Below the pieces are notes generated by a model. The model worked only from the letters and a program-made list of their open reading frames with translations, was not told where the DNA came from and made no database searches. The translations under genes and the position numbers were made by a program. This document shows, piece by piece, positions 6,340 to 59,139 of a DNA stretch of 64,000 nucleotides (positions within the stretch are counted from its first letter, which is position 1; every line of letters begins with the position of its first letter). The stretch comes from Candidatus Omnitrophota bacterium (GTDB lineage: Bacteria; Omnitrophota; Gorgyraeia; Gygaellales; Profunditerraquicolaceae), in assembly GCA_041651035.1 (NCBI GenBank), contig JBAZKC010000001.1, positions 131,244-195,243 of the forward strand, given 5' to 3'.

Positions 6340-6500
6340 TCTTTCGAGGGGACGAATACACAGGCAGGTCTTCTGGCTTCCGGATCGGCCTACTCACCAA
6401 GCCTTCCCATCTAAAGAACTCACGATAGTGGCTAGTTACGGCTTTCGTCCCCGGTTACAGCGGCGGGACCGCGCTTGCTTTTACAAGCTTCCCTTTTATC
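6340..6500 (-). promoter_or_regulatory. Cobalamin (adenosylcobalamin) riboswitch, copy 1. It is 5' of the TonB-dependent receptor, exbB, exbD, tonB, thyX operon.
   Basis: The minus strand contains the CGCCGCUGUAACCGGGGACGAAAGCC core, GCCACU...GGGAAGGC and a B12 box AAGCCAGAAGACCUGCC. A near-identical paralogous copy lies at 58835-58980 upstream of the cob operon. Confidence 0.85.
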
Positions 6501-6733
6501 CTGCGAACAGGACCTGTATATATACAAAAACCCAACCTCCTTAATAGAGACTGGGTCAAATAATCTTTCTTGCTAAGACTATTTTCAGCACCTCTATTCC
6601 CGGAGGCCTTCGTGTTCTGACTTGCCGGCCGTCTTTAAACGCCGGCACACAGTTGCGGGTACAGTTACGGATTCTCACCGAATTCCCTGCAAAATCTGAC
6701 TTAATTAAAACACGCGCCTTCCTATTTGTCAAG

Positions 6734-8551
6734 TTAATTATAAGAAGGCCTTTTCTTAAACAGGATCTTTTTGAGCCCGGGGTTTTCCACTAAACTTCCG
6801 TAATGAAAAATAACACACGACCCTCCGGACTCTTCTACATCCTGGAATTCACGGTTAAATATTTCAGGCGCCTTGACGAGTTTGTAAGCCCCGATACCGA
6901 TCTTAAGCTTGGATAGATCCGGGGTCTTTTCCTTAGCTAAAGCGATCCAACGCTTAAATTCATCGGGTTCGGGAGAATAATTCATGACCGTCACAAAATC
7001 AACCAGCCCGCGGGAAATCCATGACGGCCAATCCTGATAAGCCTCATAGTAAGCGCGCGAATACGGCATACATCCGGTTGCCGAAACCTGGATGCCCGGC
7101 CGGATAGACCGCGCCGTTTTAACCAGAGCAGCCAATAATTCCGTTACCTGTCCGCGTTTCCAATCTTTCCAGTCCTGCCCATCTTCATTAATAACTTTAA
7201 ATCCGGTTGTTTTCTTAAACCGTTTAATATTATTTTCCGTATATCCATAATGAGGCTCCATATCGGGATAACGGATATAATCAAATTGGATGCCGTCTAA
7301 ATCAGGATACGCGCGCAGTATCTCGCCGACTATTTTCAACAAATCCTCTCTCACCCGCGGATCTCCCGGCTCAAGAAAATACTGTTCGTCAATTAAATAA
7401 TCCGTAAGCTTTTCTTTGCTTTTTAAGTTTCTGGTTAATATATCGGGCCCGTATTTCTTAAGGAACGCCGCATCCTGGTTCTCTGCCAGGCTTAAAAGGT
7501 TAACCCAGGCGTGGACCTGTATTCCCTGCCGGTGCGCCTTTCTGATAAGCAGAGCGAAAGGGTCTTCGGACATACTCTTAAGGCATTCTTTATACGAGGA
7601 AGAGTCTGCTATTTCCGACGGAAACCATGCCTTATTCTGGCGATAGACCTGCACAAAGAGCGTATTGACGCCGGCCTGCCTGGCAAAATGGATCAACTTG
7701 TTAATTTCTTTCCTGCTGGAAAGCACCGGAGGGTCTTGCAGGAGGGAAACAAAAAGGTTTGCAGGTGCAGGCTTACTGCTGCCGCAGGCTCTGGCGATAT
7801 TCTTAAGTTTATCATCACCTTCAACGGCATAACGGGGTAACGTATAGGATTCATCATTGCGAAAAATATACCCGCCATTTAAACCGTTTACAGTTACCGC
7901 TCCTTCGAATCCCGCGGCCTTAGCCATAGAGATCACTTCACGGCTATAAGTGCCAAAAGGATAAGCAAAGACCAACGCTGGTTTATTCAAGTGGCTCTCC
8001 AGGGCTTTTTTTGAATCAATAATCTCCTTTAAAGCAAGTTCCCGCGGTAGAAGTGGAAGCTTCTGATGAGAACTTGAATGCGGCTGGATATCCATACCGG
8101 AGGCGGACATTTCCCGTAACTGCTGCCAATTCATATAAGCAGAATGCCCTACGGAATCGGTAATAATAAAGAAGGTGGCGGAAAAATTGTATCTTTTTAG
8201 TATCGGAAGGGCCGCGTAATATTGATCCTTCCATCCATCATCGAACGAAAGGACTATTGGCTTAGCAGGCAACGGCAGGCCGTGCTTAAGATGCGCTATT
8301 AATTGCTCCATGGTGACCGGATGGAACCCCTGGGAGGCAAGCCATTGCATTTGTTTGTCAAATTTCTCCGGCGAAAGCGTCCAGCGTTGCTGTGAACGGC
8401 TGGCGCCATCCGGAAGCCGGGCGATATGATGATACAAGAGTATCGGCACACTAACCGGCTTCCCCGTAACCGAAGCAGCCCGATGACAAGGAGCATGCGC
8501 GCATCCCATAAAAACAACACTTATCGCCAAAACACTAAACAGCCGGATCAC
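6734..8551 (-). CDS. Lipoprotein with an N-terminal NodB/CE4 polysaccharide deacetylase domain and a C-terminal glycoside-hydrolase-like TIM-barrel domain (PgaB-like architecture)
   Basis: 605 aa. Lipobox signal MIRLFSVLAISVVFMGC. CE4 motifs (ILLYHHI, LSFDDGWKDQY, FSATFFI). The C-terminal half resembles GHL10/DUF4015-type hydrolase-like barrels. Confidence 0.7.
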   Translation of the reverse strand: MIRLFSVLAISVVFMGCAHAPCHRAASVTGKPVSVPILLYHHIARLPDGASRSQQRWTLSPEKFDKQMQWLASQGFHPVTMEQLIAHLKHGLPLPAKPIVLSFDDGWKDQYYAALPILKRYNFSATFFIITDSVGHSAYMNWQQLREMSASGMDIQPHSSSHQKLPLLPRELALKEIIDSKKALESHLNKPALVFAYPFGTYSREVISMAKAAGFEGAVTVNGLNGGYIFRNDESYTLPRYAVEGDDKLKNIARACGSSKPAPANLFVSLLQDPPVLSSRKEINKLIHFARQAGVNTLFVQVYRQNKAWFPSEIADSSSYKECLKSMSEDPFALLIRKAHRQGIQVHAWVNLLSLAENQDAAFLKKYGPDILTRNLKSKEKLTDYLIDEQYFLEPGDPRVREDLLKIVGEILRAYPDLDGIQFDYIRYPDMEPHYGYTENNIKRFKKTTGFKVINEDGQDWKDWKRGQVTELLAALVKTARSIRPGIQVSATGCMPYSRAYYEAYQDWPSWISRGLVDFVTVMNYSPEPDEFKRWIALAKEKTPDLSKLKIGIGAYKLVKAPEIFNREFQDVEESGGSCVIFHYGSLVENPGLKKILFKKRPSYN

Positions 8552-8582: not shown

Positions 8583-9716
8583 TCATTTCTTCCCGCCTAT
8601 ATCCTTAAAAAGGGTTCTTATTATACCGAATTTATTCTTCATCCCGTAAGAACGATAAATACACATTATAAAATGTAACGCCGTAGGCAGCGCTCCTTTT
8701 AAGTTTACCCCCAGTACCATGCCGCAAGACCGGTTATTAGCCATAGGTATGATGTAGCCTAAATCTCGAGGCATGAATCTCTTCAGGCTTCTGCCTTTTA
8801 TGCTTTTTATTATATTAAGAGCGGCGCATTCGCCTTGCGTAATGGCAAATTGCACTGCCATTCTTAAAGAGCTTTCTTTATGGGTAAAGAATGCCGCGTC
8901 TCCTGCCGCGAAACAATTATCATTTATCCGCAAGTATTCGTCAACCTTGATCCTGCCCTGCGGATTTTTCCCTGATCTTAAATCCTGGATAAAACCCGCT
9001 GTTTTTACACCCGCGGCCCAGATCACCAAGGCATTATTAAAAGTCCTGCCTCCCAAAAGATAGACGCTGCGGCCATCAATCCTGTCAATCGCGCTGTTTG
9101 GGCAGATTTCCACGTTTAAGCATCTTAAATTAGCCGATACGTAATTTCTCATCCATTCCGGCAAAGAACCTAAAATCGCGCCCGCCCGCTCCACAATAAT
9201 TATCCCGCTGGCCCTTTTAATCTTGCCTAAATAAACTCTTAGGCTCGCGGCTATTTCAATACCGGTATAACCGCCGCCGCCGATGATAAAATTATCAAAT
9301 TCATGATACCTTAAGGTATCAACTATCCTCTTAGCGTCATAGGCGCTATCTAAAGTTAAGGAATTCTGCCTGATGCTCTCATTACCGTAAAAATTAGTCT
9401 CACAACCGCTGGCAATAACCAGATAATCGTAAGTTAAGGCCTGTTCTTTAGTCAAAACCTGCCGCCTGTCTAGATCAATTGAGGCCACCTCACCGCGGAT
9501 AAATTTGAACCCCAGCTTTTTGGCTATATTTTCTATCTTAAAAGATAAAAATTCCGGATCAATCTCCCTGCCTATACAATCAGGCAGCATCGGCAGGAAA
9601 TCAACGGCCTCTTTTTTATCTATGAGGACAATATCCAAATCCAGGTCTGATCTAGAAAGCCTGCTTGCGGCACTTATCCCCGCAAACCCTCCTCCTATAA
9701 TTAAGATATTAGTCAC
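8583..9716 (-). CDS. FAD-dependent pyridine-nucleotide disulfide oxidoreductase, type II NADH dehydrogenase (NDH-2) family
   Basis: 377 aa. N-terminal ILIIGGGFAGISAA Rossmann fold, a second GGGYTGIEIA dinucleotide-binding motif, and the AAGDAA motif. Confidence 0.75.
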   Translation of the reverse strand: MTNILIIGGGFAGISAASRLSRSDLDLDIVLIDKKEAVDFLPMLPDCIGREIDPEFLSFKIENIAKKLGFKFIRGEVASIDLDRRQVLTKEQALTYDYLVIASGCETNFYGNESIRQNSLTLDSAYDAKRIVDTLRYHEFDNFIIGGGGYTGIEIAASLRVYLGKIKRASGIIIVERAGAILGSLPEWMRNYVSANLRCLNVEICPNSAIDRIDGRSVYLLGGRTFNNALVIWAAGVKTAGFIQDLRSGKNPQGRIKVDEYLRINDNCFAAGDAAFFTHKESSLRMAVQFAITQGECAALNIIKSIKGRSLKRFMPRDLGYIIPMANNRSCGMVLGVNLKGALPTALHFIMCIYRSYGMKNKFGIIRTLFKDIGGKK

Positions 9717-10646: not shown

Positions 10647-11690
10647 ATGATTTCAAGAATAAAGAACAGAATTGAGCGGGAGCTTGCCTGTTATATCCGC
10701 GACGTAGACAAAACATATTCTTTAAGCAATATCTCGCCTGTCTTATACGATAGTATCAAGAATTTCCTCTCCCGCAAAGGCAAAAGAGTCAGGCCCACCT
10801 TATTTGTCGCAGGCTACCTTGGTTTTACCAGGAAACCGGCTAGAGGATTATACAGGAGCGCGATATCCCTAGAACTCCTGCATGACTTCTTGCTTGTCCA
10901 TGATGACATAATAGATAGATCCGCCACCAGAAGAGGCCAGCCTTCCATGCATGAAATGCTGAATAAATACCTGGTAAAATATAAGAATATAAAATTTACG
11001 GGCGAGGACCTGACTATCGTTATCGGAGATGTAATGTATGCCCTGGCCCTGGAAGCATTTTTGTCGATAAAAGAACCCTGGCTGCGAAAAGAAGCATCCT
11101 TAAGAAAACTTATTCAGGCGGCCCTTTATACCGGCAGCGGGGAATTCGTCGAACTTTTATACGGGGCGAGAAATATAGATACGGTCACCAAGGCTGATAT
11201 CTATAAAATATACGACTTGAAAACCGCCAATTATACCTTTGCCTCTCCTTTATCCATGGGCGCGCTGCTGGCAGGAGCAGAAAAGAAACAAATAGATATA
11301 CTTTTTAATTTAGGGATATATTTGGGCCGGGCCTTTCAGATAAAAGATGATTGTTTAGGCCTGTTCGGCAAAGAGCGCAATACCGGAAAATCCGGCCTCA
11401 CAGACCTTAAGGAAGCCAAAAAAACAATTCTTATCTGGTATGCTTATAATAAATCATCGGAAAAAGACAAGCTGACTATTAAGAGGATATTCGCCAAAAA
11501 TAAAATTGATAAAAACGATTTATTAATTACGCAAAGGATCGTTTCTGCCTCAGGGGCGCTGGAATATGCCGAAAGGGAAATTAACGCTTTGACAAAGAAA
11601 GCAGATTATCTGGCTGCCCGCTCTAAAATGCGCCTGCCTTATAAATCCGCTATTATTGATTATTCCAAAGAGATGCTTGAACTAAGATAA
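10647..11690 (+). CDS. trans-Polyprenyl diphosphate synthase (IspB/GGPPS family)
   Basis: 347 aa. First DDxxD motif LVHDDIIDRS and second FQIKDDCLGLFG. Confidence 0.8.
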   Translation: MISRIKNRIERELACYIRDVDKTYSLSNISPVLYDSIKNFLSRKGKRVRPTLFVAGYLGFTRKPARGLYRSAISLELLHDFLLVHDDIIDRSATRRGQPSMHEMLNKYLVKYKNIKFTGEDLTIVIGDVMYALALEAFLSIKEPWLRKEASLRKLIQAALYTGSGEFVELLYGARNIDTVTKADIYKIYDLKTANYTFASPLSMGALLAGAEKKQIDILFNLGIYLGRAFQIKDDCLGLFGKERNTGKSGLTDLKEAKKTILIWYAYNKSSEKDKLTIKRIFAKNKIDKNDLLITQRIVSASGALEYAEREINALTKKADYLAARSKMRLPYKSAIIDYSKEMLELR

Positions 11691-37969: not shown

Positions 37970-38043
37970 AGCAATCCTCCTTGCCCACAAGGGCACACCC
38001 GGCAATCCGATAAGCCGGGGTGTAACCACAAGGCCACACCGAC

Positions 38044-38104
38044 GCCCCCCGCCCCCTGCTTAGTACTATATTTTCAGAAAAACTGCCGCAATTTTTAGGG
38101 GGCG
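38044..38104. repeat. Structured intergenic repeat, copy A (divergent). A C-rich arm, a 45-nt AT-rich core and a complementary G-rich arm.
   Basis: ccgccccc...tttcagaaaaactgccgcaattttta...gggggcgg. The arms are reverse complements. It is homologous to copies at 39599-39654 and 41390-41454. Confidence 0.6.
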
Positions 38105-38108
38105 GAAA

Positions 38109-38777
38109 TTAATCTAGCAGTTTCTGAGACAAACGATGCAACTCTGGATTGGCTAAAGCCAAAACCTTCTTTTTTACCGCTCTTGAAAAATATTCTTTCT
38201 CGGTTTTGGTCAATTTTTCCCGCTTAAGCTTCTTTAGAAATAGTTCTTTTTGTTTAGGAGAAAAAACCTGCGATAATGAATATTCAAGGCTCAATTCGTC
38301 TTTTACCGAAAGTAATTCATTTAATTTATTCCGGGCCTGGTTAAAGTAATTATTGAATACAGTCTTCAATCTCTGAGCAGACAATTCGCTTCCGGCAACG
38401 TTAAGCTCTCCATTAGATTTAAGCTTCTCGAGGAATACCATCACTTTTCTTCTTCTCGCTACGGAAAGGGAATAATATAATTTATCGGCCCAAGAAAACT
38501 TTAGATTAAAGAATTTATAAAGTGCTAATGATATTTCCATAAGTGAAAATAAATACGGTTTATCGAAGGGCTTTTTTAAGTACCAATTAACTTTGTCATA
38601 GCTAAATAATCCCTTCTCTGCGCTGTTTGCTAATACTACCGGAAACCCTTCCCAAAGGCGAAGATCACGAGATCTCACCATGTCCGCCAAAGTTAAATTA
38701 GCATCCTTATCTTCTTCGACGCCAAAAAGCGGAAAACCTAACGCATTAACTCTTTTGAGAAGATCGTCATTTTTCAT
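38109..38777 (-). CDS. Hypothetical protein, partner of the upstream nucleotidyltransferase (possible toxin-antitoxin or defense pair)
   Basis: 222 aa. Its start overlaps the NTase stop by 11 nt. Confidence 0.4.
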   Translation of the reverse strand: MKNDDLLKRVNALGFPLFGVEEDKDANLTLADMVRSRDLRLWEGFPVVLANSAEKGLFSYDKVNWYLKKPFDKPYLFSLMEISLALYKFFNLKFSWADKLYYSLSVARRRKVMVFLEKLKSNGELNVAGSELSAQRLKTVFNNYFNQARNKLNELLSVKDELSLEYSLSQVFSPKQKELFLKKLKREKLTKTEKEYFSRAVKKKVLALANPELHRLSQKLLD

Positions 38778-39357
38778 TGATCAGGCCTTCTTTCTTTAGA
38801 ATCTTTAAGAAATGCTCAAAATTCTTATTCACTTTGTCTTCTGAAACATCAAAAGATGCTGTTTCTTTAAAACGCTTCTCTAACTGCTTAAAATCTATGT
38901 CTTTATTTTTATCCCTTACTAAAACAAGGCAATCATCTATATCTATCGCTGTAGCTCTGAATAGCTTACTTATAACAATGTCATAATAATTTAAAACTCC
39001 CAAATAAATTCTATCAAACTCTTTTACAAAAATATGATTTCCTTTTCCCAGTGGCGACTCTAACAATTCTGTAGTATGTACTGCTTTACCTCTGAATAAA
39101 TCGAATATGAAGCCATCTCCCCTCTCCCACCCCCAGCCGCTTGCCGATTTATATCCAAGCTGTTTTAAAGTACTTACTAAATATTCATATTCATCTAAAT
39201 TTGGCACTATTAAGTCTATATCCTTAGTAGATGGTTTCACGCCTAAAAGCGTCAAAGCGGTTCCGCCACAGGCAATCAAATGCACCTTCCTCTTGAGAAA
39301 GGTATCCCAAGCCCTGATTCTATCCAATAGGCCTTGTTTATCTATTCTATATTCCAT
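38767..39357 (-). CDS. Pol-beta-superfamily nucleotidyltransferase-like protein
   Basis: 196 aa with ACGGTALTLLGVKPSTKDIDLIV (the hG[GS]x9-13DxD NTase motif). Confidence 0.6.
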   Translation of the reverse strand: MEYRIDKQGLLDRIRAWDTFLKRKVHLIACGGTALTLLGVKPSTKDIDLIVPNLDEYEYLVSTLKQLGYKSASGWGWERGDGFIFDLFRGKAVHTTELLESPLGKGNHIFVKEFDRIYLGVLNYYDIVISKLFRATAIDIDDCLVLVRDKNKDIDFKQLEKRFKETASFDVSEDKVNKNFEHFLKILKKEGLINEK

Positions 39358-39435
39358 ACAATAACTTGTATATATTCATACAACTCTCTGTATTAAAGCA
39401 TACAATATATTTAGTATTTTGTCAAGACAATCTTC

Positions 39436-39465
39436 GACAACCTAAATGACAACCTAAATGACAAC
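39436..39465. repeat. Tandem 12-nt repeat (gacaacctaaat, about 2.5 copies)
   Basis: Read directly from the sequence. Confidence 0.6.
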
Positions 39466-39521
39466 TAATTTTGGCAAGAAACACTTGGTGGAACCGCGTC
39501 TCTAAGGAAACAGCTTAAATG

Positions 39522-39654
39522 CACCGCGCCCTGGGGGGCGCTCCCACATCTCGCGTCCAGCGCTTCAAAAACTGCTTGGGCGGGGCGCGGCCCCCACCCC
39601 GCGCCCCGCCTAGCGCTATCTTTTCAAAAAACTGGCGAAATTTTTAGGGGGAGG
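39522..39654. repeat. Structured intergenic repeat, copies B1 and B2 in tandem. B2 contains a perfect 12-bp inverted repeat GGCGGGGCGCGG/CCGCGCCCCGCC.
   Basis: B1 is ccgcgccc...agcgcttcaaaaactgcttg...gggcgcgg. B2 is ccccgcgccccgcc-tagcgctatcttttcaaaaaactggcgaaattttta-gggggaggg. Confidence 0.65.
39599..39654. repeat. Structured repeat unit B2. This is an explicit coordinate for the unit already contained in the 39522-39654 feature.
   Basis: See the 39522-39654 feature. Confidence 0.6.
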
Positions 39655-39697
39655 GAAAAAAATAGAAACTTCCTTAAATAGTTAAGAATTTTTTAGA

Positions 39698-41191
39698 TTA
39701 ACTTGAATTACTAATGGCTTTATTCAGGTCATCGATGAAAAGCTGGGCTTCTTGGGCATTCCCTCTTTTCCATCTATTAAGTAATTTCGAGCATCCACTT
39801 CCAAAGTTATCTTTTTTATCCTGAAACCATCTTTTGTGCCCACCACTTTCTGTCACATTAACAAAACCGTTAAAACAAGTATCCTTATAGAATGCCATCT
39901 CTCCTCCCCAAAAGGAATCATCTTCAGGCAATGTTGCTAAAAAGGTATAAAAAATGCTTTCAGGACACTTATCCTCTGGCAGAAACACTACATTTTTTAA
40001 CCTTGCAAACCGAGCATTTGTCCTAGAATCTCCATCCAAAACAAATATAAATCTTTTCAGACATGATAATCTTTTTGATGCCAAGTCAGCTAAAGCCCCA
40101 TTAGAAAGAGTAGCTCCATAAACATCAATAATGCTCTTTAACGATGTAGCATTTAGCAAGCTTCTACACCATAATGCTCCAACTGGGTCTTCACATAAAA
40201 GATTGATTTTCTCAACTGAATGTTTTTCCTTAGTTTCAATCATTATTCTACTCTTTATATAATGGAATTCTGGGTTAAGCTTATTGACAACTTTTCTATT
40301 TCTTATTTCAAGGAAATTTACTTTTACTCCTTCATAATTCTTGTTTAATAGGAAATTTATAATTTCCAATGAATGCGTAGTAAAAACTATTTGGAGACTG
40401 TAAGTTCTCGCGTATTTGTATAATCTTTTTATAAGATTTATTTGAGAACCCGCAAACATAGTGGTATCCAACTCATCGATTAACAAAATTCCCCGATTCG
40501 GTTCTAGTTTCTTGAAAGACATAATCGCAGTTAAGATTTGCCCTAAATTATCTTGCCCAGCTGAGTTACCTAGAGTGCCATAGCTATCAGTTTCTGTTGC
40601 AAAGAAATCTTTATTGGGCGTCTTAGCATGCTGTGGAGAAACATTTTTTTCCAAAGAAACAAAAATTTCGCTTGATTCGTTCTTATAAAAATGGATGTCT
40701 TGGGTACCTAATCCAGACTCTTCAATTAAAATATCTCCTTCTTTTTCTTGGGCTAGAGGAAACAATCGTCTTAAGCCAAGATAAATTACGGGATAATCAA
40801 TTTTTCCTTCTCCCTCTTTTGCACGGATACCAACATCAATCCTAAACCTTTTTTCCGATTTTACATACCTTGACTTGGCTTGTTTATTAAGGACCTCTCC
40901 TTCATCATCTAATTCGGCTTCATATTCATAGTTCTTATCAAATTCATGAGTTGGGCAGAATTTAAATATTTCTGAATACTCAGCTTCATATGGTTTATTA
41001 TCCAAAGTTTTGTGTTTATATTTAACTTCTGATCCTTTTTCTCTAAAACTAAACAAGTGGCCAACTAAACCAAGAATGCTTGACTTACCTGTGCCATTTA
41101 AACCAGATATTACTGTTAAATAGTCACCAAATTCTATACTAACATTCTCCATATGTCTAAAATATTTAACATTTAGCTTTACTATTCTCAT
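39698..41191 (-). CDS. OLD-family ATP-dependent endonuclease (ABC-type ATPase plus C-terminal TOPRIM), GajA-like
   Basis: 497 aa. Has Walker A GLNGTGKSS, Walker B ILLIDELD, H-loop FTTHS, and TOPRIM Glu (LLCEDPVG) and DxD (FVLDGDS). Confidence 0.75.
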   Translation of the reverse strand: MRIVKLNVKYFRHMENVSIEFGDYLTVISGLNGTGKSSILGLVGHLFSFREKGSEVKYKHKTLDNKPYEAEYSEIFKFCPTHEFDKNYEYEAELDDEGEVLNKQAKSRYVKSEKRFRIDVGIRAKEGEGKIDYPVIYLGLRRLFPLAQEKEGDILIEESGLGTQDIHFYKNESSEIFVSLEKNVSPQHAKTPNKDFFATETDSYGTLGNSAGQDNLGQILTAIMSFKKLEPNRGILLIDELDTTMFAGSQINLIKRLYKYARTYSLQIVFTTHSLEIINFLLNKNYEGVKVNFLEIRNRKVVNKLNPEFHYIKSRIMIETKEKHSVEKINLLCEDPVGALWCRSLLNATSLKSIIDVYGATLSNGALADLASKRLSCLKRFIFVLDGDSRTNARFARLKNVVFLPEDKCPESIFYTFLATLPEDDSFWGGEMAFYKDTCFNGFVNVTESGGHKRWFQDKKDNFGSGCSKLLNRWKRGNAQEAQLFIDDLNKAISNSS

Positions 41192-41337
41192 TCCCTCGGC
41201 CCCCTATGAGATGTAAGTTGGTTTTCGATAAGCTTGCGATACTTACAAGTTGTATCTTCTAATAATTATTCTTTCATACTTATGCTAATTCTTTTACGTC
41301 ACTGCTTTTATCACAATAAAAACAAGCGTAAATATTG

Positions 41338-41354
41338 GGACGTTTCTATTTTTC
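41338..41354. repeat. 17-bp direct repeat GGGACGTTTCTATTTTT, left copy. The right copy is at 48013-48029.
   Basis: Exact 17-mer present twice, bracketing the four-gene cassette at 41500-47856. Confidence 0.6.
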
Positions 41355-41389
41355 AAGATTAGAAGAAACCTTTACTTATTTATCCGTAG

Positions 41390-41454
41390 CCCCCTCCCCG
41401 CGCCCCGCCTTGCGCTATCTTTTCAAAAAGCTGGCGAAATTTTTAGGGGAGGGG
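41390..41454. repeat. Structured intergenic repeat, copy C, with arms cccctcccc/ggggagggg
   Basis: ccccctccccgcgccccgcc-ttgcgctatcttttcaaaaagctggcgaaattttta-ggggagggg. The arm sequence differs from copy B but stays complementary, which is covariation. Confidence 0.65.
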
Positions 41455-41499
41455 AATAAATCTAACCCTTTACTCAGAATTAATACGGCACGCCCAATT

Positions 41500-44289
41500 T
41501 CAACCTGTGCTATGCTTGCTACCGTAAGAACATAAACGATACTGAAAACAATCCTTACAAACTTCTCTGTTTTTTGTTCTTATAAATGATTGTTTTCTAA
41601 TAGTATCAGCACTTTCTTTTATCTTTTTCTCCATCATTTCAAGATGGCTTTCGCTTAATGGTATTGGGGGTTTCTGAGTATTAGTTTCTAAATCATATAT
41701 CTGGATGTAATCGGCTTCTTGTCCTGTAAGCTCCTTATGACCCATGGCATATAAATTAAGTTGATCGATGGTAATTTGCCTCTTCTGCACATCATCACTT
41801 GACTTAAATTCTATAATAGTAGTTTCATATTTACCTTCGTAATTCTTCTTTTTTATCAAATCGATTCTCCCGCTGACAAAAATACCATCATCAAGATGCA
41901 GTTGAATATCTTGTTCTACAAATTCAACTTCTTTTAACGATTTTTTATTATTATCAAAATATTGAACCACCTTATTCTCAACTAATTCTTTCATTTCAAG
42001 CAATATTGAGGACTTGCCTAAATAAGGAAAATAGGATTGTTGCTTTGCAATATCCCTTACAAGTGGTAAGCTAAGAACCTCGCCTAACATGCTTCTTTTA
42101 TGAATTTCCATTAGACTATTATGTAATGATTTTCCGAATCCCATTCGTTGGTCCAAAGGATAACAAAAACCATACATGGAAACGAGTTTGAAACGGTATG
42201 GACATTCAAAGAAATCTTTCAAAATACTAAAGTTTAGAGATATAGTGACTATGCTCTGTTTGGGTTTTGGTTCAAGTTTAGTTTTTGTTTTAAAATCTGG
42301 GATATTTGTAACAATTACATTTGAAGCTGAAATCTCAGAAACAAATATAGAAGGTTTTCTATATAGCTGATTATTTTGATCAGGCGCTCTTGAAATAAAC
42401 AAATATTTTTGAGCTCTTGTGATTGCTACATAGAATAATCTACGCTCATCTTCAATATTTCCTTCATATCGATCCTGGTTTTTAATTAACGTTCTATCTA
42501 AGAAATGCCATTCACTCAATCCACCATGTTTTTTTGTTGGGAGATAATTTTTATTTAGTCCTGGTATAAATACAACAGGAAATTCAAGCCCCTTTGCTTG
42601 ATGAATAGTCATTATTTGAACTGCTCGTGGAGTCTTATATGGATTATTTAACCATCCTTCTGGGTAATAGTCGTTTGCTGCATATGTTATGAAATCTAAA
42701 AAATATTTTAAGTGGATTTCTGGTAGAGAGCTATTGAAATTTATCGATTCAAAATCATTTATTACTTGGCTAAATTTGCCAAGGTTAAACATTATTATTT
42801 CTCCTCTAAGAGGATCCTCAAATGTTTCTTCATTTATTTTGGCAATTTCAATAAAACTCCAGTAAACATCTTGCAAACTATATGCCCAAATCGGTTTTCT
42901 TTTTTTATCTATGTGATTCTCGGGGAATTTTCTTGTTAAATTTTTTATAGCGATATTAAGATTTTCAAATTTAATTTTATTTTTAGGTATATCTTGCCAA
43001 AGCTTGATTAGTTCTTCTTTTTTTATAGAATGATTTAAATACTGAAAAATGCCCACTGCTGCTTTTGCTTCGTTAACTTCAAATAATTCGTTAACACCTG
43101 CTGTAATATAAGGAATATTATATTTATCAAGAATTTCAACAATCCTATAGGATTTATTCCATGTTCGCAGAAGGATAGCAAAATCGGAGTAATCAAGCCC
43201 ACGCTTCTCTTCTCCTTCTTCTTTAAATGATACTCCGAGCAATTTCTTTATCATATCCGCAATAAAATTATTTTCTTCTTCAATATTTACAAACTCATTG
43301 TATAGTATGTCTTCTTTTTTAATGAAATTTTGCTTTTCGGCCGAGATCATTTTCTTGGGGATTCGATTATTTTTAAAGATAAGAGTTTCTGCAAGACTTG
43401 TAATTCCCTTGGAACTTCTAAAATTTTCATTTAAAATCACTTCTTTGGCAGGTCTATAGTTTTTTAGAAAATCTTTTATATATCGATTATTACTACCTCT
43501 CCACTGATAAATATTTTGATCGTCATCACCTACAACGGTAACGATTGGTTTGCTTGTTAGGTAAAGTTGCTTTATTAATTCTTCTTGGATTGGATTAACA
43601 TCTTGATATTCATCTACGATCAGGTACTTTAAGTCTTGCTTTATCTTGTTATACAACCCCTTTTTCTCATGTAAACTATTTAAGGCTTCTGTCATTATCA
43701 TAGTGAAATCAAAATAGCAGTTATCTCTTAAAACTTTTTCATATTTCTCTTTTGCTTTTGAAATATTTTCAGGTAATTTACGATTACAATCTGACTCTCT
43801 GATAATATTCATTATTTGAATGAATCTTCCTGTATCAACAAACTTTCTCATGCTGAAGTTTCTATCATTTATTTTAGTAATGTCGGTCATACCGATGTGA
43901 TAATAATTTTTATCTACGAATAGACGCAATTTTATCTCATCTAAAACAGAGAAATTTTGGAATTTGTACTCATTGTTTTGCAAGGCGTTAAGACACCAAC
44001 CGTGAATTGTGCCAATATACATGTCTGCAATACCTCTTAACTCATTCAGATCAGGATTTTCTTTAAGAAAATTCAAGATTTTATTTTTTAATTCTGCCGC
44101 TGCTCTATCAGTATATGTAAACGCAATGATGTTTTTCGGTTCTATTTTTAAGCCATTCTTGGGATTTAATAAAAATGTCACCTTTCCAGCAATAGTACTT
44201 GTCTTTCCCGAACCTGCGCAGGCGATTATTCTTAAATTTTGCTCATTGGCTTTTATAGCCGTTTTTTGTTCATCTGTAAAAGGTATCAT
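41500..44289 (-). CDS. UvrD/PcrA-like SF1 helicase fused to a C-terminal Cas4/AddB-type PD-(D/E)xK nuclease domain with a Cys4 cluster
   Basis: 929 aa. Has motif I IIACAGSGKTSTI and motif Ia AFTYTDRAAAEL. The C-terminus carries CPYRFKL...CKDCFQYRLC and IIEFKSSDD (ExK). Its start overlaps the upstream MTase by 4 nt. Confidence 0.75.
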   Translation of the reverse strand: MIPFTDEQKTAIKANEQNLRIIACAGSGKTSTIAGKVTFLLNPKNGLKIEPKNIIAFTYTDRAAAELKNKILNFLKENPDLNELRGIADMYIGTIHGWCLNALQNNEYKFQNFSVLDEIKLRLFVDKNYYHIGMTDITKINDRNFSMRKFVDTGRFIQIMNIIRESDCNRKLPENISKAKEKYEKVLRDNCYFDFTMIMTEALNSLHEKKGLYNKIKQDLKYLIVDEYQDVNPIQEELIKQLYLTSKPIVTVVGDDDQNIYQWRGSNNRYIKDFLKNYRPAKEVILNENFRSSKGITSLAETLIFKNNRIPKKMISAEKQNFIKKEDILYNEFVNIEEENNFIADMIKKLLGVSFKEEGEEKRGLDYSDFAILLRTWNKSYRIVEILDKYNIPYITAGVNELFEVNEAKAAVGIFQYLNHSIKKEELIKLWQDIPKNKIKFENLNIAIKNLTRKFPENHIDKKRKPIWAYSLQDVYWSFIEIAKINEETFEDPLRGEIIMFNLGKFSQVINDFESINFNSSLPEIHLKYFLDFITYAANDYYPEGWLNNPYKTPRAVQIMTIHQAKGLEFPVVFIPGLNKNYLPTKKHGGLSEWHFLDRTLIKNQDRYEGNIEDERRLFYVAITRAQKYLFISRAPDQNNQLYRKPSIFVSEISASNVIVTNIPDFKTKTKLEPKPKQSIVTISLNFSILKDFFECPYRFKLVSMYGFCYPLDQRMGFGKSLHNSLMEIHKRSMLGEVLSLPLVRDIAKQQSYFPYLGKSSILLEMKELVENKVVQYFDNNKKSLKEVEFVEQDIQLHLDDGIFVSGRIDLIKKKNYEGKYETTIIEFKSSDDVQKRQITIDQLNLYAMGHKELTGQEADYIQIYDLETNTQKPPIPLSESHLEMMEKKIKESADTIRKQSFIRTKNREVCKDCFQYRLCSYGSKHSTG

Positions 44290-45542
44290 GGATTAATTTT
44301 TTGCATTACAACTATATATTCGATATTCATCAAATTTCTTTTTTCCCCTGACACCCCTGAAGGGCTATTCTTTCTTGGTAACCTTTTGTTTGATATTTTT
44401 CTCTCAAATGTTTCAATATGTTTAAATCCATTATCTTTAAAGAATTCTCTTGTGATTTGATGTGTTTGTAACGTAACTCCTTTGACGCATCTATTGCTTA
44501 CAACATAGCAAGCATAACCTTTTTTCCTTATAATCTTTGAAACATTCGCAATTGACTTTTCATAATCTTCGTAAAATGCTGACACATCCAAAGCTCTATT
44601 TTTATCTATTTTCCCAATTTTTATTAAATCCTTATTTAAAATTTTGCATTTAAATTCTTTTATCTTTTTAGCTCTTTTGCCTCCCATTAATTCATAATCA
44701 AGCTTATTTGCATCTTGAAATCCTAACCATTGATTAGCTAATCTAGAGAATTGTCCATACGCAACAGTTGTTTGCGAATCTCCATATGGAGGAGATGTAA
44801 TCACAATCCCTACCTTCTGCTTTATGATTTGATTAGGATCTTGTTTTACTGTGTTAAAATCATGTATTTTACTTGTCGCGCCATTCTTTTTTTCATCACA
44901 AAATTTTAAAAGTCCTTCCCTGTTTTTGGCTACTATTTTTTCAAAGGTTGTAAAGACGTCTGGCTTAAAATGTCTAAGTTGCTTTGTATCCATTCTGTAT
45001 AGCTTGAACTCATTTTTCCTTGTACGTGAGCATTCTCTTATTGTTTGACTAAATGCGACTTTAAAAAAATTACTTACCGACGCATACGGAATTTTATCAA
45101 TATATTCTTTCAGAATCGATAGGTCGACAATCACGGACTTTGAAAACCAAAAAGTAATATTAGGGAATTTAGCGGGTACCACAAAATTACGTTTTTTAAA
45201 ACCAAAACGAAATGGGAAAAGATAAGAGTAAAATTCTTTTATATGTGAATTTAAAGTTTTAGTTTTGATCGAGTTAGTTTTTGCCGTTGCAATCAACCTT
45301 GCAAGTGGATTTATATCAGTACCTAATGCGTTAAGACCATTAATATTTGCCTCAACTAGAGATGTTCCCGTACCACAATAAGGGTCGAAAAGAGTAGATT
45401 TATTAATACCGTATTTCTTTATTAGTTGATCTGCAACATGAGGAACCATCATTGCTGGATAAGTATGGAAACAGTGAGTAGAATATTTAGTATCAACTTC
45501 GATAAAATCCCAATCATATTTTTTTACCATGTGCTTATCCAA
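44286..45542 (-). CDS. DNA methyltransferase, N4-cytosine or N6-adenine
   Basis: 418 aa with motif I FDPYCGTGTS and motif IV ITSPPYG. Confidence 0.75.
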   Translation of the reverse strand: MDKHMVKKYDWDFIEVDTKYSTHCFHTYPAMMVPHVADQLIKKYGINKSTLFDPYCGTGTSLVEANINGLNALGTDINPLARLIATAKTNSIKTKTLNSHIKEFYSYLFPFRFGFKKRNFVVPAKFPNITFWFSKSVIVDLSILKEYIDKIPYASVSNFFKVAFSQTIRECSRTRKNEFKLYRMDTKQLRHFKPDVFTTFEKIVAKNREGLLKFCDEKKNGATSKIHDFNTVKQDPNQIIKQKVGIVITSPPYGDSQTTVAYGQFSRLANQWLGFQDANKLDYELMGGKRAKKIKEFKCKILNKDLIKIGKIDKNRALDVSAFYEDYEKSIANVSKIIRKKGYACYVVSNRCVKGVTLQTHQITREFFKDNGFKHIETFERKISNKRLPRKNSPSGVSGEKRNLMNIEYIVVMQKINP

Positions 45543-45719
45543 ACAGCTTAAACATCATTGATTCAATCGGCCTAGAATTAAAATCCTTAAGATTATGAGG
45601 ACATTCCCAAAAGAGACACCCCTTATAAAAAATTGAATCACAATCTATTTATCTGTAACTAATTATAAACGCCTAGCCTGTCACCCCGGGGAACGTCACC
45701 GAAACCATTCTTGATTAGT

Positions 45720-46811
45720 TTATTTTCCAGATTTGGTTCGGTTATCTTGTTTGCACAACATTTGGCAATTCTTTGCAACAGTCTTTCCACCTTCATGCCA
45801 GGGTTTTATATGATCAGCTTCCATTTCTTCTATCTCAAAGTGTTTCTTGCATTTTACGCATTTACCTTTTTGCCTTTCGTATGCTTCTCTTTTTTGTTTA
45901 TCTGTAAATGCTCTAATATTCAAGAATTTCTCATTTCGGGTTAAAACATACGGATAAATTCCGGTTTTGCTTGTTACTTCATCATCCAGCATTAACTCTT
46001 TGATTTCAGTTTCCAATTTATTAGAATTCAGTCTCTTCTCTTTGAACTCGCTATACAGCTCTCCCCATTGCACACTACTCATTTCTCGGCGATAATTTGT
46101 AAAAGTCTTTCGCACCCATTCAATCACATCTTGAAAGTACTGCCACAATTCTTCAGCATTTTTGTTATGCTGATGCTTGGCCATATAATCTTCTATTTTG
46201 CCTTTGTTAATCCACGAAAGCACAGTTTCTAAATACTCCTGTCGAATTGGTGAACCACTAACTAATTGTCCGCCGTCGTTTGCTAACAAATACGCCGCAC
46301 AATTTGATTTACTGAATTTTAATTTCGCGTCGCTCAACCACGGCCCGGTATAAACTGCGTTACGGATTTCCTGGTCGTTAACCTTCTCTCCGTAAGTGTT
46401 AATAATCCTAAACCAGTCTAGCCGTTCCTTATCCGCACCTTCGCAGAAATAAATCATTAGTTCATAATCCAAAATTTTATCTTGTTCCTCTTTGGTTAGA
46501 TTATGAAAAAAGCGGTCGTTCAGCGAAAAATCGCCATAAACATATTGCCCTATACTAATAGTGCGCTGCTGGCCGTCCAGCATTTCGTAGCCACCATCTT
46601 CTCTGATCATCCAATACATCACATTCAGCGGAAAGCTGTTTTTGATAGTTTCGATTACGGCATTACGTTGCTTTTCCTTGTACACAAATTCACGCTGATA
46701 TTTTGGACGAATATCAAGTTTACCATCATAAGCCACCACGCCTTCTTCGGCGCTATCTTTGTAGCCCGCCATCACTCTACGAATTTTAATTTTGTGTAGT
46801 TCAATTTTCAT
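45720..46811 (-). CDS. DUF262 (ParB/GmrS-like NTPase) fused to an HNH endonuclease, a GmrSD-like restriction protein
   Basis: 363 aa with the DGQQRT motif. The C-terminal HNH is EADHIKPWHEGGKTVAKNCQMLCKQDN. Confidence 0.75.
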   Translation of the reverse strand: MKIELHKIKIRRVMAGYKDSAEEGVVAYDGKLDIRPKYQREFVYKEKQRNAVIETIKNSFPLNVMYWMIREDGGYEMLDGQQRTISIGQYVYGDFSLNDRFFHNLTKEEQDKILDYELMIYFCEGADKERLDWFRIINTYGEKVNDQEIRNAVYTGPWLSDAKLKFSKSNCAAYLLANDGGQLVSGSPIRQEYLETVLSWINKGKIEDYMAKHQHNKNAEELWQYFQDVIEWVRKTFTNYRREMSSVQWGELYSEFKEKRLNSNKLETEIKELMLDDEVTSKTGIYPYVLTRNEKFLNIRAFTDKQKREAYERQKGKCVKCKKHFEIEEMEADHIKPWHEGGKTVAKNCQMLCKQDNRTKSGK

Positions 46812-46812
46812 A

Positions 46813-47856
46813 TTATTTTTTCACCTTCTTGTTTTTTATAATAACTCGAGCGTAAGGAACATCGACAATTCCATTTGTAATCATATATAAATCGCCATCA
46901 ACTGCACCTCTTTTTTGAACTTCTTTTCTGTATTTTTTATGTTCCTCCTTATACGGTTTAACTCCAATCTCCATCCCTGAATTAGATATACCTAAACCAA
47001 TAACCTCAAATTGGTTCGGATTATATTTATCAAGGAAAGTAACTGGTACACCAATCGCACCATCATAGTCGCAAGGTATGTCGGTATATTTGTCTACGTT
47101 AATTGCATCATAATTGTAGTACTTTGGATATTCTTTACGTGAATATTTTTTATAAAGAGTGATATCTTGTTTATGCTTCTCAACTACAAGATTTGTAAAC
47201 CAACACGAAGTTGACACACGCACAATTTTCTTGCCATTTTCATCAATATGATGAAAATGCTCCCAATCGTCTGGTACAATAAAAAACATCCCTACATTAA
47301 AATTCGTGTAGCCAGTACGCAGTTTGTTGTCCTTAATTAACTTAAAAATCTCTTTATAGGTTAGTGAATTTGTATTGCCTATAATCAAAAACCCTTTTTT
47401 GTACTTCACGAGCTGTGCAACATATTCACGAAACAGCGAAAATGGTGGATTAGTCACAACAATATCCGCTTCTTTAAGTAGTTCAATACACTCCACACTA
47501 CGAAAATCGCCCGTTCCTATCATCTCAGTTATAAACTCACTTGGATCAGGCGTGCGATTACCATTTTTATCGCCTGTGTATTCTAATTTATAAGGTGGTT
47601 CTTGGGAAAATAAATTTGCTTCTTTATAATGTGTGGCTATCAATTTTTTTAGCCCCAAATGTTCAAAATTCATACTAAAATATTTGACGAAATTACTTTC
47701 TCTGGGATCATCGCAGTTGCAAAAAACTACTTTGCCGCGGAATTGCTCTTTATAATATTTCAGTTCATTTTCAATATCGCCAAGCTGAGTATAAAACTCG
47801 TCTTTCTTTTCTTGGCTTGCTTTGTGTAAGTTTTTATTTAAGAATTTTGTTTCCAT
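46813..47856 (-). CDS. N6-adenine DNA methyltransferase (NPPF class)
   Basis: 347 aa with motif IV VVTNPPF. Ends 2 nt before the DUF262-HNH start. Confidence 0.7.
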   Translation of the reverse strand: METKFLNKNLHKASQEKKDEFYTQLGDIENELKYYKEQFRGKVVFCNCDDPRESNFVKYFSMNFEHLGLKKLIATHYKEANLFSQEPPYKLEYTGDKNGNRTPDPSEFITEMIGTGDFRSVECIELLKEADIVVTNPPFSLFREYVAQLVKYKKGFLIIGNTNSLTYKEIFKLIKDNKLRTGYTNFNVGMFFIVPDDWEHFHHIDENGKKIVRVSTSCWFTNLVVEKHKQDITLYKKYSRKEYPKYYNYDAINVDKYTDIPCDYDGAIGVPVTFLDKYNPNQFEVIGLGISNSGMEIGVKPYKEEHKKYRKEVQKRGAVDGDLYMITNGIVDVPYARVIIKNKKVKK

Positions 47857-48012: not shown

Positions 48013-48057
48013 GGGACGTTTCTATTTTTGGCGGTTAATGAAAAATAGCAACGTCCC
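48013..48057. repeat. 17-bp stem hairpin gggacgtttctattttt-ggcggttaatg-aaaaatagcaacgtccc. The left arm is the right copy of the 17-bp direct repeat.
   Basis: Read directly from the sequence, with one mismatch in the stem. Confidence 0.55.
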
Positions 48058-48081
48058 CTCCTTTTCTGATTGTACTAATTA

Positions 48082-48175
48082 ATTACTCCTTGCGTAAACG
48101 CTTGTAATCTTCTTGCTCCGCGTTCAAAGCGCCAGTTGGATTTCTTTACTATTACTCCTTGCGTAAACGCTTGTA
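48082..48175. repeat. Two perfect 25-nt direct repeats (attactccttgcgtaaacgcttgta) spaced 69 nt apart, next to the tRNA-His 3' end
   Basis: Copies at 48082-48106 and 48151-48175. Confidence 0.6.
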
Positions 48176-48252
48176 GATTTCATCCGCTTCGCTACTGAAA
48201 TCTACTGCGCACGCTTCGGAGTGAAATTTTTTGTAAAGCAAAAAATTTCAAG

Positions 48253-48329
48253 GGTGGCTGACGGGGCTCGAACCCGCGACCTCTAGAGCCACAGTCTAGT
48301 GCTCTAACCAGTTGAGCTACAGCCACCAG
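48253..48329 (-). tRNA. tRNA-His (anticodon GUG)
   Basis: The minus strand reads gGUGGCUGUAGCUCAACUGGUUAGAGCACUAGACUGUGGCUCUAGAGGUCGCGGGUUCGAGCCCCGUCAGCCACC. The extra 5' G pairs with the discriminator C. Has GTG in the anticodon loop and T-loop GGUUCGAGUCC. CCA is not encoded. Confidence 0.9.
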
Positions 48330-58799: not shown

Positions 58800-58834
58800 T
58801 GCACCCTGTTTTAAGCTTTAACCCTTCCGCGAGG

Positions 58835-58980
58835 ACCTGATATAGGCAGGTCTTCTGGCTCCCGGATCACTCTACTCATCAGGCCTTCCCGCCCGAAAAT
58901 TTACGGGCAGTGGCTGATTATGACTTTCGTCCCCGGTTACAGCGGCGGGACCGCATCCGCTTTCACGGATTTCCCTTAAC
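58835..58980 (-). promoter_or_regulatory. Cobalamin riboswitch, copy 2, controlling the cob/btu operon
   Basis: Same conserved cores as copy 1, including CGCCGCUGUAACCGGGGACGAAAG, GCCACUG...GGGAAGGC and B12 box GAGCCAGAAGACCUGCC. Confidence 0.85.
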
Positions 58981-59061
58981 CTATATCCAAATTTGTATTT
59001 ATTCTTACACCCTGCGGACTGTTTGTCAACGTTTTTCTTGCGTAAGAATACCGCTTATATA

Positions 59062-59139
59062 TGGTCGGGGCGACAGGATTTGAACCTGTGACCTCTTGCT
59101 CCCAAAGCAAGCGCTCTAGCCAAACTGAGCCACGCCCCG
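59062..59139 (-). tRNA. tRNA-Pro (anticodon UGG)
   Basis: The minus strand reads CGGGGCGUGGCUCAGUUUGGCUAGAGCGCUUGCUUUGGGAGCAAGAGGUCACAGGUUCAAAUCCUGUCGCCCCGACCA. Anticodon loop UUUGGGA. CCA is encoded. Confidence 0.9.

Follow-up and report, generated by a model that had tools for sequence, protein, structure and literature searches.

The window analysed here, a 64-kb stretch of Candidatus Omnitrophota DNA, contains a low-GC defence island lying 3' of a tRNA-His gene (48252..48326, minus strand), which marks the island border; in relatives, a large serine recombinase is integrated at tRNA-His. The genes considered here are arranged as cassettes on the minus strand. Cassette 1 (38109..39357) comprises a 196-aa DUF6036 nucleotidyltransferase and a 222-aa partner, and is preceded by a promoter of the form TTGACA-17-TATGCT (39425-39397, minus strand). 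Cassette 2 (39698..41191) encodes a 497-aa AAA_15/AAA_21 ATPase that matches the ATPase-Toprim, AriA and GajA models. Cassette block 3 (41500..47856) encodes a 929-aa UvrD/PD-(D/E)XK helicase-nuclease (GajB-like) together with a type II methyltransferase, a GmrSD_N/HNH restriction enzyme and an EcoRI-type methyltransferase.

A repeat search located three genuine copies of one element between these minus-strand genes: copy A (38040-38111), copy B (39590-39661, used as the reference) and copy C (41389-41460). All lie inside the tRNA-His island, within a 3.4-kb part of the window. Copy C is 92% identical to copy B, and copy A is 65% identical to it in an ungapped comparison, with a 1-nt indel between the two. 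A 30-nt core pattern had two exact matches in the window, against 0.00 expected from shuffles, and a profile HMM run over the 64 kb matched exactly copies A, B and C (E-values of 3.7e-12, 1e-15 and 1.6e-13, respectively). Four copies had been claimed in the first-pass annotation; three of these are real, but the ‘first tandem unit’ (39522-39589) is not a full copy and is instead composed of a 12-14 nt direct repeat (AGCGCTTCAAAAACTG vs AGCGCTATCTTTTCAAAAAACTG), a GC-hairpin arm and the hairpin of a module at 39497-39556.

Copies were also sought beyond the window. When 185,579 species genomes were scanned for the pattern, 24 loci were returned, of which 11 match beyond the pattern itself, all 11 being Candidatus Omnitrophota. 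With a metagenome scan and HMM search the family reached 154 copies at 99 loci, and every identifiable host was again Candidatus Omnitrophota; the core pattern had 0 matches in viral contigs. The pattern occurs at one locus per contig, or two at most, even on contigs of 195-357 kb, and copies are clustered in islands, within arrays of co-oriented defence and toxin-antitoxin cassettes (L004, L016/L024, L029, L050 and the window). The window copies very probably belong to a family of junction repeats, and the earlier proposal of a repeat family punctuating defence modules holds, the family extending far beyond the window.

The position of the element relative to genes is strongly constrained. 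A co-oriented ORF of at least 80 aa ends within 90 nt upstream of 114 of the 143 evaluable copies (median distance 16 nt), and the opposite arrangement of gene and element was found in none of the 143. On the gene strand, copies start 0-40 nt past the stop codon of the last gene in cassettes of one to three genes. Roughly one copy in five (~20%) lacks a co-oriented ORF within those 90 nt; at two loci (L081 and L088) the long form of the element points away from the adjacent gene block and has no upstream gene. Genes upstream of the element often have defence or toxin-antitoxin functions: the 115 unique ORFs include 16 Fic proteins (13 matching SoFic), as well as AAA_15/21 ATPases (AriA, GajA and Old models), HEPN, SIR2, KAP and RhuM proteins. 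DNA methyltransferase and restriction-modification genes are common nearby.

Across the family, the most conserved part is a nearly invariant box of 32-46 nt, which reads TTTCCTCCCCC-TAAAAATTG-CGG-CAGTTTTTTG-AAAAGATAGCGCT on the gene strand. It consists of a C-run, an AT-rich imperfect palindrome (TAAAAATTG-CGG-CAGTTTTTTG) and AAAAGATAGCGCT, and the exception to its invariance is a variable centre of 3-5 nt between inverted A5/T5 arms. Beyond the box lies a 12-bp GC hairpin. The match ends of the copies define three size classes: short (~35-80 nt), medium (~200 nt) and long (~420 nt). The reported 65-nt unit is the gene-proximal part of this larger modular junction element, and its boundaries were misplaced: what is conserved is the box of at most 46 nt plus the GC hairpin, often within the ~200-nt or ~420-nt forms. 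The relevant strand is the gene (minus) strand, on which the box lies directly past stop codons. A promoter within the element was considered and rejected, there being no sigma-70 or sigma-54 fit in the box and the promoter of the 196-aa gene lying outside the element; a small ORF or ribosome-binding site was likewise rejected, as the antisense GGAGG has no conserved start codon after it.

The window copies illustrate this modularity, and all of their parts are assigned to the minus strand. Copy A is a short form, equivalent to positions 3-65 of the long-form model; its box (38063-38107) starts directly past the TAA stop (38109-38111) of the 222-aa gene and precedes a degenerate GC-hairpin arm. 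Between copy A and the start of a response regulator lies a hairpin module, CACCCGGC...GCCGGGGTG (37996..38022), which recurs at other loci with its bulge kept and with T-A to C-G changes, as read from the sequences by eye. Copy B is a long form with an internal deletion (39446..39680, E = 9e-50, model positions 4-113 and 359-418), in which a degenerate outer arm (39657-39680), the box (39612-39656), a perfect 12-bp GC hairpin (39579-39613), a direct-repeat segment (39543-39578) and ‘element 2’, the hairpin of another conserved module (39497-39556), can be distinguished. Copy C is a short form nested between terminator-like outer arms (41337..41480), with a downstream arm GGGACGTTTCTATTTTT (41337-41366), a truncated GC arm (41389-41411), the box (41412-41455) and a degenerate upstream arm (41456-41480). 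The arms around copy C are of the same family as those of a minimal palindrome, termed P, at 48013..48060 (GGGACGTTTCTATTTTT-11 nt-AAAAATAGCAACGTCCC), which is terminator-like, has a U-rich tail and contains no box.

The first-pass annotation had modelled the element as an autonomous structured RNA or hairpin of ~65 nt, with C-rich and G-rich arms that covary while remaining complementary in each copy. Complementary short arms are present and perfect in copy A (CCGCCCCC/GGGGGCGG) and copy C (CCCCTCCCC/GGGGAGGGG), and arm stems appear in the minimum-free-energy folds, but the arms of copy B contain an A-A mismatch. The covariation did not withstand a family-wide test: among 54 members the C-run/G-run helix was 80% paired, yet its covariation score (0.072) was below the shuffle mean (0.088), 500 of 500 shuffles scored at least as high as observed, and registers slid by 1-3 nt scored equally or higher. 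As the shuffled and slid controls pair just as well, the arm pairing reflects homopolymer composition. Many members lack any C-rich partner (e.g., L009 and L012), the G-rich ‘arm’ is conserved with or without one, and most of the ‘C-rich arm’ corresponds to the conserved GC hairpin, namely to its loop and one of its arms. On the gene strand, the 72-nt units also fold with unremarkable energies (z-scores of -1.2, +0.2 and -2.2). The covarying-arm model was thus tested and not supported, and a conserved small RNA fold of this kind is now scarcely credible. For later work, the lesson is that complementarity between a C-run and a G-run is not covariation.

Secondary structure is nonetheless conserved elsewhere in the element. 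The GC hairpin has one compensatory pair, a C-G to U-A swap in 8-9 sequences, and the ~420-nt long form is predicted to be multi-helical, with compensatory changes in 21 of 54 predicted pairs, among them nested long-range helices and hairpins with four to five pair types. The long form might be a structured non-coding RNA in its own right, perhaps one that regulates neighbouring cassettes in cis or in trans, with short copies such as A and C as decayed remnants. Near-full copies number at least 21, some long forms (L081 and L088) lack an upstream gene, and folding is slightly more favourable on the gene strand than on the antisense strand (-66.8 vs -61.7 kcal/mol). The element was unmatched in Rfam at gathering thresholds in the window and 11 loci, and a permissive search (E up to 10) of the window and two long forms gave chance-level matches only; such an RNA would therefore be a new family. 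However, the strand preference is weak, no promoter or terminator delimits a transcript, and the same covariation would equally be expected of single-stranded DNA structures or mobile palindromes. Moreover, three quarters of the copies are truncated forms whose box is still nearly invariant, which places the constraint on the box rather than on the large fold. A structured non-coding RNA of this kind is considered very unlikely.

To survey the genes around the element, a Pfam census covered 320 ORFs, each at least 170 aa long, from the element loci, on short contigs and with the best 25 families per batch listed. A group II intron fragment had been prompted by the combination of a constant end and variable truncation; it was rejected, as the GC hairpin has neither a domain V bulge nor a GNRA loop. 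No reverse transcriptase was among the listed census families.

The cassettes are mobile relative to their surroundings. The same cassette is found in different genomic contexts at 88-94% nucleotide identity; the window cassette (39453-38047), for example, is 90.5% identical to positions 361-1763 of locus L003, against 76.5% for a neighbouring core gene. In five contexts the cassette is common and the sequence past the box different. Insertions of hairpin modules occur at the T-run, and two copies have the hairpin loop in inverted orientation. The junction points inside the hairpin vary between copies, as could follow from deletion or illegitimate recombination no less than from homologous exchange. 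Two loci (L115 and L116) carry the same DUF6036 and 222-aa cassette without the element, which is dispensable for that cassette.

One account of these arrangements is a selfish, non-autonomous mobile element (MITE-, PATE- or REP-like) whose palindromic modules insert strand-specifically in terminator hairpins or T-runs 3' of genes and pile up in tolerant islands. Some copies lie between inverted arms of 17-31 nt, as if a P hairpin had taken them up in its loop; between 12-nt direct repeats (CAGTTYTTTGAA), the GC hairpin is found in some copies and missing from others; other hairpin modules occupy the same T-run (L102, L023 and L079); nearly identical copies occur across species; and at L115 and L116 the cassette occurs on its own, lacking the element. 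Against this, the flanks of 11 arm pairs showed no target-site duplication, and consistent differences separate the two 12-nt repeats of a copy, which points to an ancient duplication and not to repeated insertion. Confinement to islands and the 114:0 orientation lock to genes are also unusual for MITEs and REPs. Y1_Tnp, the Y1/RAYT transposase family, was absent among the listed census families, in which the sole transposases were two rve proteins, and no GTAG head was seen in the element-locus contigs. A mobile element of this type thus seems unlikely, and a MITE in particular was rejected on the missing duplications; only a minority of copies have inverted arms.

The box could alternatively be an attC-like or dif-like site at which a recombinase, acting in trans, inserts and excises cassettes: an integron-like arrangement built from other parts, in which the large serine recombinases common in the islands, or a Xer-type enzyme, would bind the AT-rich imperfect palindrome with its variable centre. 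Several features point in this direction. Co-oriented cassettes form arrays in which each is closed by the same oriented site, and the box is nearly invariant save for the 3-5 nt centre between its inverted arms. Immediately past GCGGCAGTTTTTT, similarity breaks off in many copies or gives way to inserted modules. The repeats are lineage-specific, L115 having the same cassette with another repeat family, which recalls the species-specific families of attC. A large serine recombinase is present at 6 of the 99 loci, and in relatives it is found integrated at tRNA-His. However, no recombinase is consistently placed relative to the arrays, and no tyrosine recombinase (Phage_integrase) was found among the listed census families, in the eight window proteins scanned or in the called genes of L115, L116 and L118. 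The R''/R' boxes (RYYYAAC/GTTRRRY) were absent in the 127 unique copies read, which have no AAC...GTT pair and end in CCTCCCCCTAAAAA... and G-rich hairpin arms; no dif-like TTATG core was read in the sequences either. Downstream junction points are variable rather than precise, and the cassettes have their own promoters. Variants of the left arm, centre and right side of the box, again as read from the sequences, are linked, which gives no indication of a crossover at the box centre. Overall, a site-specific recombination site is rather doubtful.

Three specific systems of this type were also set aside. With no attC boxes in the copies read and no integron integrase among the listed census families, the element was judged not to be a classical integron; a dif or pdif site is contradicted by the lack of an XerD-arm motif in the sequences read; and the large serine recombinase, albeit enriched near elements and found at tRNA-His, has an inconsistent geometry relative to the element. 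The box has no similarity to tRNA-His by eye and is therefore probably not an att core.

The best explanation, held tentatively, is that the element is an insulator or terminator-like module at the 3' end of cassettes, which also provides homology for cassette shuffling. The element would be transcribed as the 3' end of each cassette, and its hairpins, often nested in terminator-like outer arms, would mark the transcript end and insulate separately regulated cassettes from one another. Near-identical copies would offer homology where cassettes are gained, lost or swapped, and exchange between them would leave the hybrid, truncated and inverted-loop junctions observed. P hairpins lie directly past TAA and are followed by U-rich tails, and a relative without the element has, in the corresponding 3' region of the same cassette, a canonical terminator ~170 nt past the stop. 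Less easily fitted to this view, a simple terminator scan flags the GC hairpin at ~39576-39613 on the antisense strand only; on the gene strand a gap of 7-8 nt separates the stem from the U-run beyond it. For a plain terminator, a nearly invariant AT-rich box of 32 nt would be superfluous, and this invariance suggests recognition by a protein. The copies with no co-oriented ORF nearby, the element-free cassettes at L115 and L116 and the variable junction points also count against it. Among the roles initially proposed, a shuffling site and a terminator or insulator are still the most plausible, whereas an autonomous ~65-nt structured RNA is not.

No description of the element was found in the literature, including a 2026 preprint on complete Omnitrophota genomes, and the phylum is poorly known and mostly uncultured. 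Even on a conservative reading, the box is a sequence marker for defence and toxin-antitoxin islands in Omnitrophota metagenomes, and the ~420-nt element, with its covariation and its absence from Rfam, can be tested with metatranscriptomes. A more far-reaching and improbable reading is that Omnitrophota possess an integron-like cassette platform without IntI or attC, in which the element (the invariant box plus, in its full form, the covarying ~420-nt structure) is the substrate or guide for a capture mechanism by which, at hotspots such as tRNA-His, defence and toxin-antitoxin cassettes are put together and shuffled. If the element truly marks and mobilises cassettes, it would constitute a second route to defence-gene arrays, independent of integrons.

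Among known systems, the element resembles the REP/BIME sequences of enterobacteria and pseudomonads, which are also mosaics of palindromic GC-rich units with conserved linkers just 3' of genes, and which function in mRNA 3'-end protection, termination and as recombination substrates. REPs, however, are RAYT-linked and occur in hundreds of copies genome-wide, whereas the Omnitrophota element is confined to accessory islands, with no RAYT and no GTAG head seen, and has no sequence similarity to them. The stoperators of cluster A mycobacteriophages, which are repressor sites of 13-14 bp within a single prophage, are likewise multi-copy, conserved asymmetric sites in short intergenic regions near stops, with orientation locked to transcription; to our knowledge, no cognate repressor has been reported for the Omnitrophota element. 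As in pdif modules and IMEX arrays, small modules, often toxin-antitoxin systems, are bounded by short AT-rich imperfect palindromes. Those modules are Xer-dependent and their recombinase acts in trans, so none needs to adjoin them; pdif sites, though, alternate in orientation and have a conserved XerD arm (TTATGTTAA), whereas the Omnitrophota box is always direct and lacks this arm. The likeness to integron attC sites, sedentary chromosomal integrons and CALINs (attC clusters without an integrase) is seen in the co-oriented cassettes of one to three genes, rich in toxin-antitoxin and defence functions, each ending in a similar oriented, inverted-repeat-like repeat close to the stop, and in repeat families that differ by lineage while the cassettes are common. 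Unlike integrons, the element arrays (~100) have no IntI nearby among the listed census families, and their cassettes carry their own promoters; unlike attC, the element has variable junction points, a length of up to ~420 nt and no RYYYAAC/GTTRRRY boxes, and it combines a conserved centre with degenerate arms, the reverse of the attC pattern.

A repeat search of the window returned one three-copy family, at 38040-38111, 39590-39661 and 41389-41460 (copies A, B and C), and a profile HMM search of the 64-kb window found the same three copies and no others; the chance expectation for the 30-nt core pattern was 0.00 matches. The copies follow the genes for proteins of 222, 497 and 929 aa, respectively. 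Four copies had been reported in the first-pass annotation, and three of these are real. The remaining "tandem unit" (39522-39589) is no true copy and consists of a short direct core repeat, a single arm of a perfect 12-bp hairpin (GGGCGGGGCGCGG-CCCCCAC-CCGCGCCCCGCC, 39579-39613) and the hairpin of another conserved module. Copies A and C have the short form; copy B has the long form, of which model positions 4-113 and 359-418 remain after an internal deletion.

The same annotation had described a structured repeat of roughly 65 nt with covarying C-rich and G-rich arms. A helix test of the C-run against the G-run was made on an alignment of 54 family members (A5). The helix was paired in 80% of cells; its covariation score (0.072) fell below the shuffle mean (0.088), with 500 of 500 shuffles scoring at least as high, and registers slid by 1-3 columns scored equally well or higher. 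The arm complementarity is therefore a composition effect. The 72-nt units also folded no significantly better than shuffled sequence (gene-strand z-scores of -1.2, +0.2 and -2.2), and a covarying 65-nt RNA is scarcely credible. Real structure lies outside these arms, in the long form and in the GC hairpin. One position of the local GC hairpin is genuinely compensatory (in 8-9 sequences C-G has become U-A, and U-G intermediates occur). The AT-rich hairpin (AAAAAUUG-CGG-CAGUUUUU) within the box, the nearly invariant gene-proximal part of the element, is itself essentially invariant and therefore uninformative on covariation; its U-G pair is possible on the gene strand only.

Matches to the 421-nt model end in three classes, of ~35-80, ~180-209 and ~410-421 nt. 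For the near-full long-form copies (at least 21), RNAalifold predicted 54 pairs, 21 of them with compensatory changes, including nested long-range helices and hairpins with 4-5 pair types. The antisense strand folded somewhat worse (48 pairs, 17 compensatory; -61.7 vs -66.8 kcal/mol). Such a fold would suit an independent ncRNA of ~420 nt, which we consider very unlikely.

One genome from each of 185,579 species was scanned with a degenerate pattern, which gave 24 loci. Eleven of these, from about nine MAGs, matched far past the pattern itself, and all 11 belong to Candidatus Omnitrophota; the other 13 were chance matches. The pattern had no match in the viral collection scanned, and a metagenome scan yielded 90 loci. 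With a 46-nt profile, 154 copies were found in 99 loci. Pattern matches were limited to one, or at most two, loci per contig, even in contigs of 195-357 kb, so the family keeps to islands and is not dispersed.

Within most loci all copies share a single orientation, and the strand on which the element was first written is antisense to the flanking genes. Read on the gene strand, a stop codon is followed by TTTCCTCCCCCTAAAAATTGCGGCAGTTTTTTGAAAAGATAGCGCT and then by AGGCGGGGCGCGG-GGTGGGGG-CCGCGCCCCGCC. An ORF of at least 80 aa ended no more than 90 nt upstream in 114 of the 143 evaluable copies (median 16 nt), and the opposite arrangement occurred in none of the 143. Arrays of 2-5 units, with 1-3 genes per unit, were common. 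Mobile defence and toxin-antitoxin cassettes thus carry at their 3' end a modular junction element that is specific to Omnitrophota, confined to islands and locked in orientation.

Both orientations were present in five contigs (L045, L067, L077, L081 and L088), with inverted long-form copies at both ends of contigs such as L081 and L088. These contigs are 5-10 kb long and carry restriction-modification or defence gene blocks. Contig breaks often adjoin recombinase genes, consistent with assembly breaks at junction repeats.

The modular anatomy was read off the sequences. Flanked by 12-nt direct repeats (CAGTTYTTTGAA), the GC hairpin is missing from some copies, and other hairpin modules occur as insertions at the same T-run. 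The GC-hairpin loop is inverted in two copies (L098, 3572-3760; L012, 43-257), where CCCCCACC replaces GGTGGGGG on the gene strand; this suggests DNA-level inversion across the palindromic stem. Some copies are nested in terminator-like inverted arms, GGGGACGTTTCTATTTTT...AAAAATAGAAACGTCCCC, which are also seen on their own, immediately past a TAA and followed by a U-rich tail, as at window 48013-48060. A parasitic element of the MITE or REP type, exploiting terminator hairpins, might show such nesting; given the island restriction and locked orientation, we regard this as unlikely. On the cassette 5' side there is a conserved motif, ...GCGCGGCCCCCACCCAAAGGTTTC, directly after which a cassette-specific promoter and operator start.

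Among the 115 unique ORFs that immediately precede the box, 16 encode Fic proteins, and 13 of the 16 match SoFic. Others in this position encode OLD/AriA/GajA-like ATPases, HEPN, SIR2, KAP and RhuM proteins; common neighbours are MNT-HEPN pairs, DNA methyltransferases and restriction-modification genes. The window cassette of DUF6036 and 222-aa genes, box included, is 90.5% identical to that of another locus (L003) over 1407 nt, and a neighbouring core gene only 76.5%. The cassette is common to five distinct contexts at 88-94% identity, and the sequence after the box differs, which is evidence that these cassettes move. Homologues of the 222-aa protein provided an element-independent sample of contexts. 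One lineage (L118/L119) has the box after a Fic gene and after the 222-aa gene, and two lineages carry the same cassette without it, in co-oriented toxin-antitoxin/defence arrays. Thus the cassette does not require the element, whose presence is lineage-specific. Of the box-less loci, L116 carries a canonical terminator in the corresponding 3' region, ~170 nt past the stop codon, and L115 has another junction repeat family in its place. The latter, AAGACCAAAGATTGAAAGGGACAGACCCCCG...GGGACTGTCCCC plus a 74-nt unit (99% identity between two copies), punctuates AbiE and DUF6036 cassettes at 7236-7320, 9221-9363 and 10678-10851.

In the window (GC ~44%), the copies belong to a low-GC island (30-38%) at roughly 38.1-48.2 kb, which ends at a minus-strand tRNA-His gene (48252-48326). 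Every island gene is on the minus strand. Along transcription they encode an EcoRI-type methyltransferase, a GmrSD_N/HNH restriction enzyme, a type II methyltransferase, a 929-aa UvrD/PD-(D/E)XK helicase-nuclease (GajB-like), a 497-aa AAA_15/21 ATPase (assigned from ATPase-Toprim, AriA and GajA models), and a 196-aa DUF6036 nucleotidyltransferase with its 222-aa partner. The palindrome at 48013-48060 (GGGACGTTTCTATTTTT-11 nt-AAAAATAGCAACGTCCC, 17-bp stem), which separates tRNA-His from the first island gene, looks like a bidirectional terminator; its arm motif also flanks copy C (41337-41353) and forms hairpins of 36-59 nt after stop codons at other loci. Just 3' of tRNA-His, a 25-nt perfect direct repeat, ATTACTCCTTGCGTAAACGCTTGTA (48082-48106 and 48151-48175, 69-nt spacing), could be an attachment-site remnant. 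A 12-nt tandem repeat, GACAACCTAAAT (~2.8 copies, 39436-39469), just upstream of the 196-aa gene promoter (TTGACA-17-TATGCT), looks like an operator, and its gene-strand motif TTGTCATTTAGG also lies upstream of DUF6036 and Fic cassettes elsewhere. The window also holds three minus-strand cobalamin riboswitch matches (6346-6532, 6612-6686 and 58828-58999), two of which explain the 134-nt repeat D2, and a tRNA-Pro gene (59062-59139).

Among the matches listed near elements (best 25 Pfam families, 320 neighbouring ORFs) there were two rve transposases and no tyrosine recombinase. A large serine recombinase, abundant in Omnitrophota, was present in six element loci, and long-form fragments adjoin it. 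It lies directly 3' of tRNA-His in L120 (9670-11473), and in L122 (1703-1776) and L123 (11421-11499) the 3' end of the recombinase gene overlaps an antisense tRNA-His gene, which indicates an integrative element targeting tRNA-His in Omnitrophota. tRNA-His adjoins element arrays in five loci. One of the collected loci (L022) shares the flanking DUF748 gene with the window and, next to tRNA-His (5040-5140), retains a fragment of an EcoRI-type methyltransferase homologous to the window's (...EADIVVTNPPFSLFREYVAQL... region), which is evidence that islands decay and turn over at this shared hotspot. The window island thus occupies a recurrent integration hotspot but carries no recombinase itself. 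Inspected by eye, the box does not resemble tRNA-His and is therefore probably not the att core of the serine recombinase. A role for the element as an attC- or dif-like site, served in trans by a recombinase, is doubtful.

Our preferred, tentative reading is that the element may be a transcript-end or insulator module and also a homology source: at the cassette 3' end it would end or insulate the transcript, and its copies would supply the homology for cassette shuffling. No description of it was found in the literature searched, including a 2026 preprint on 176 complete Omnitrophota genomes (bioRxiv 10.64898/2026.06.07.730766). Compared with known systems on the features tested, the element stands apart from integrons, REP and MITE sequences and every Rfam family.
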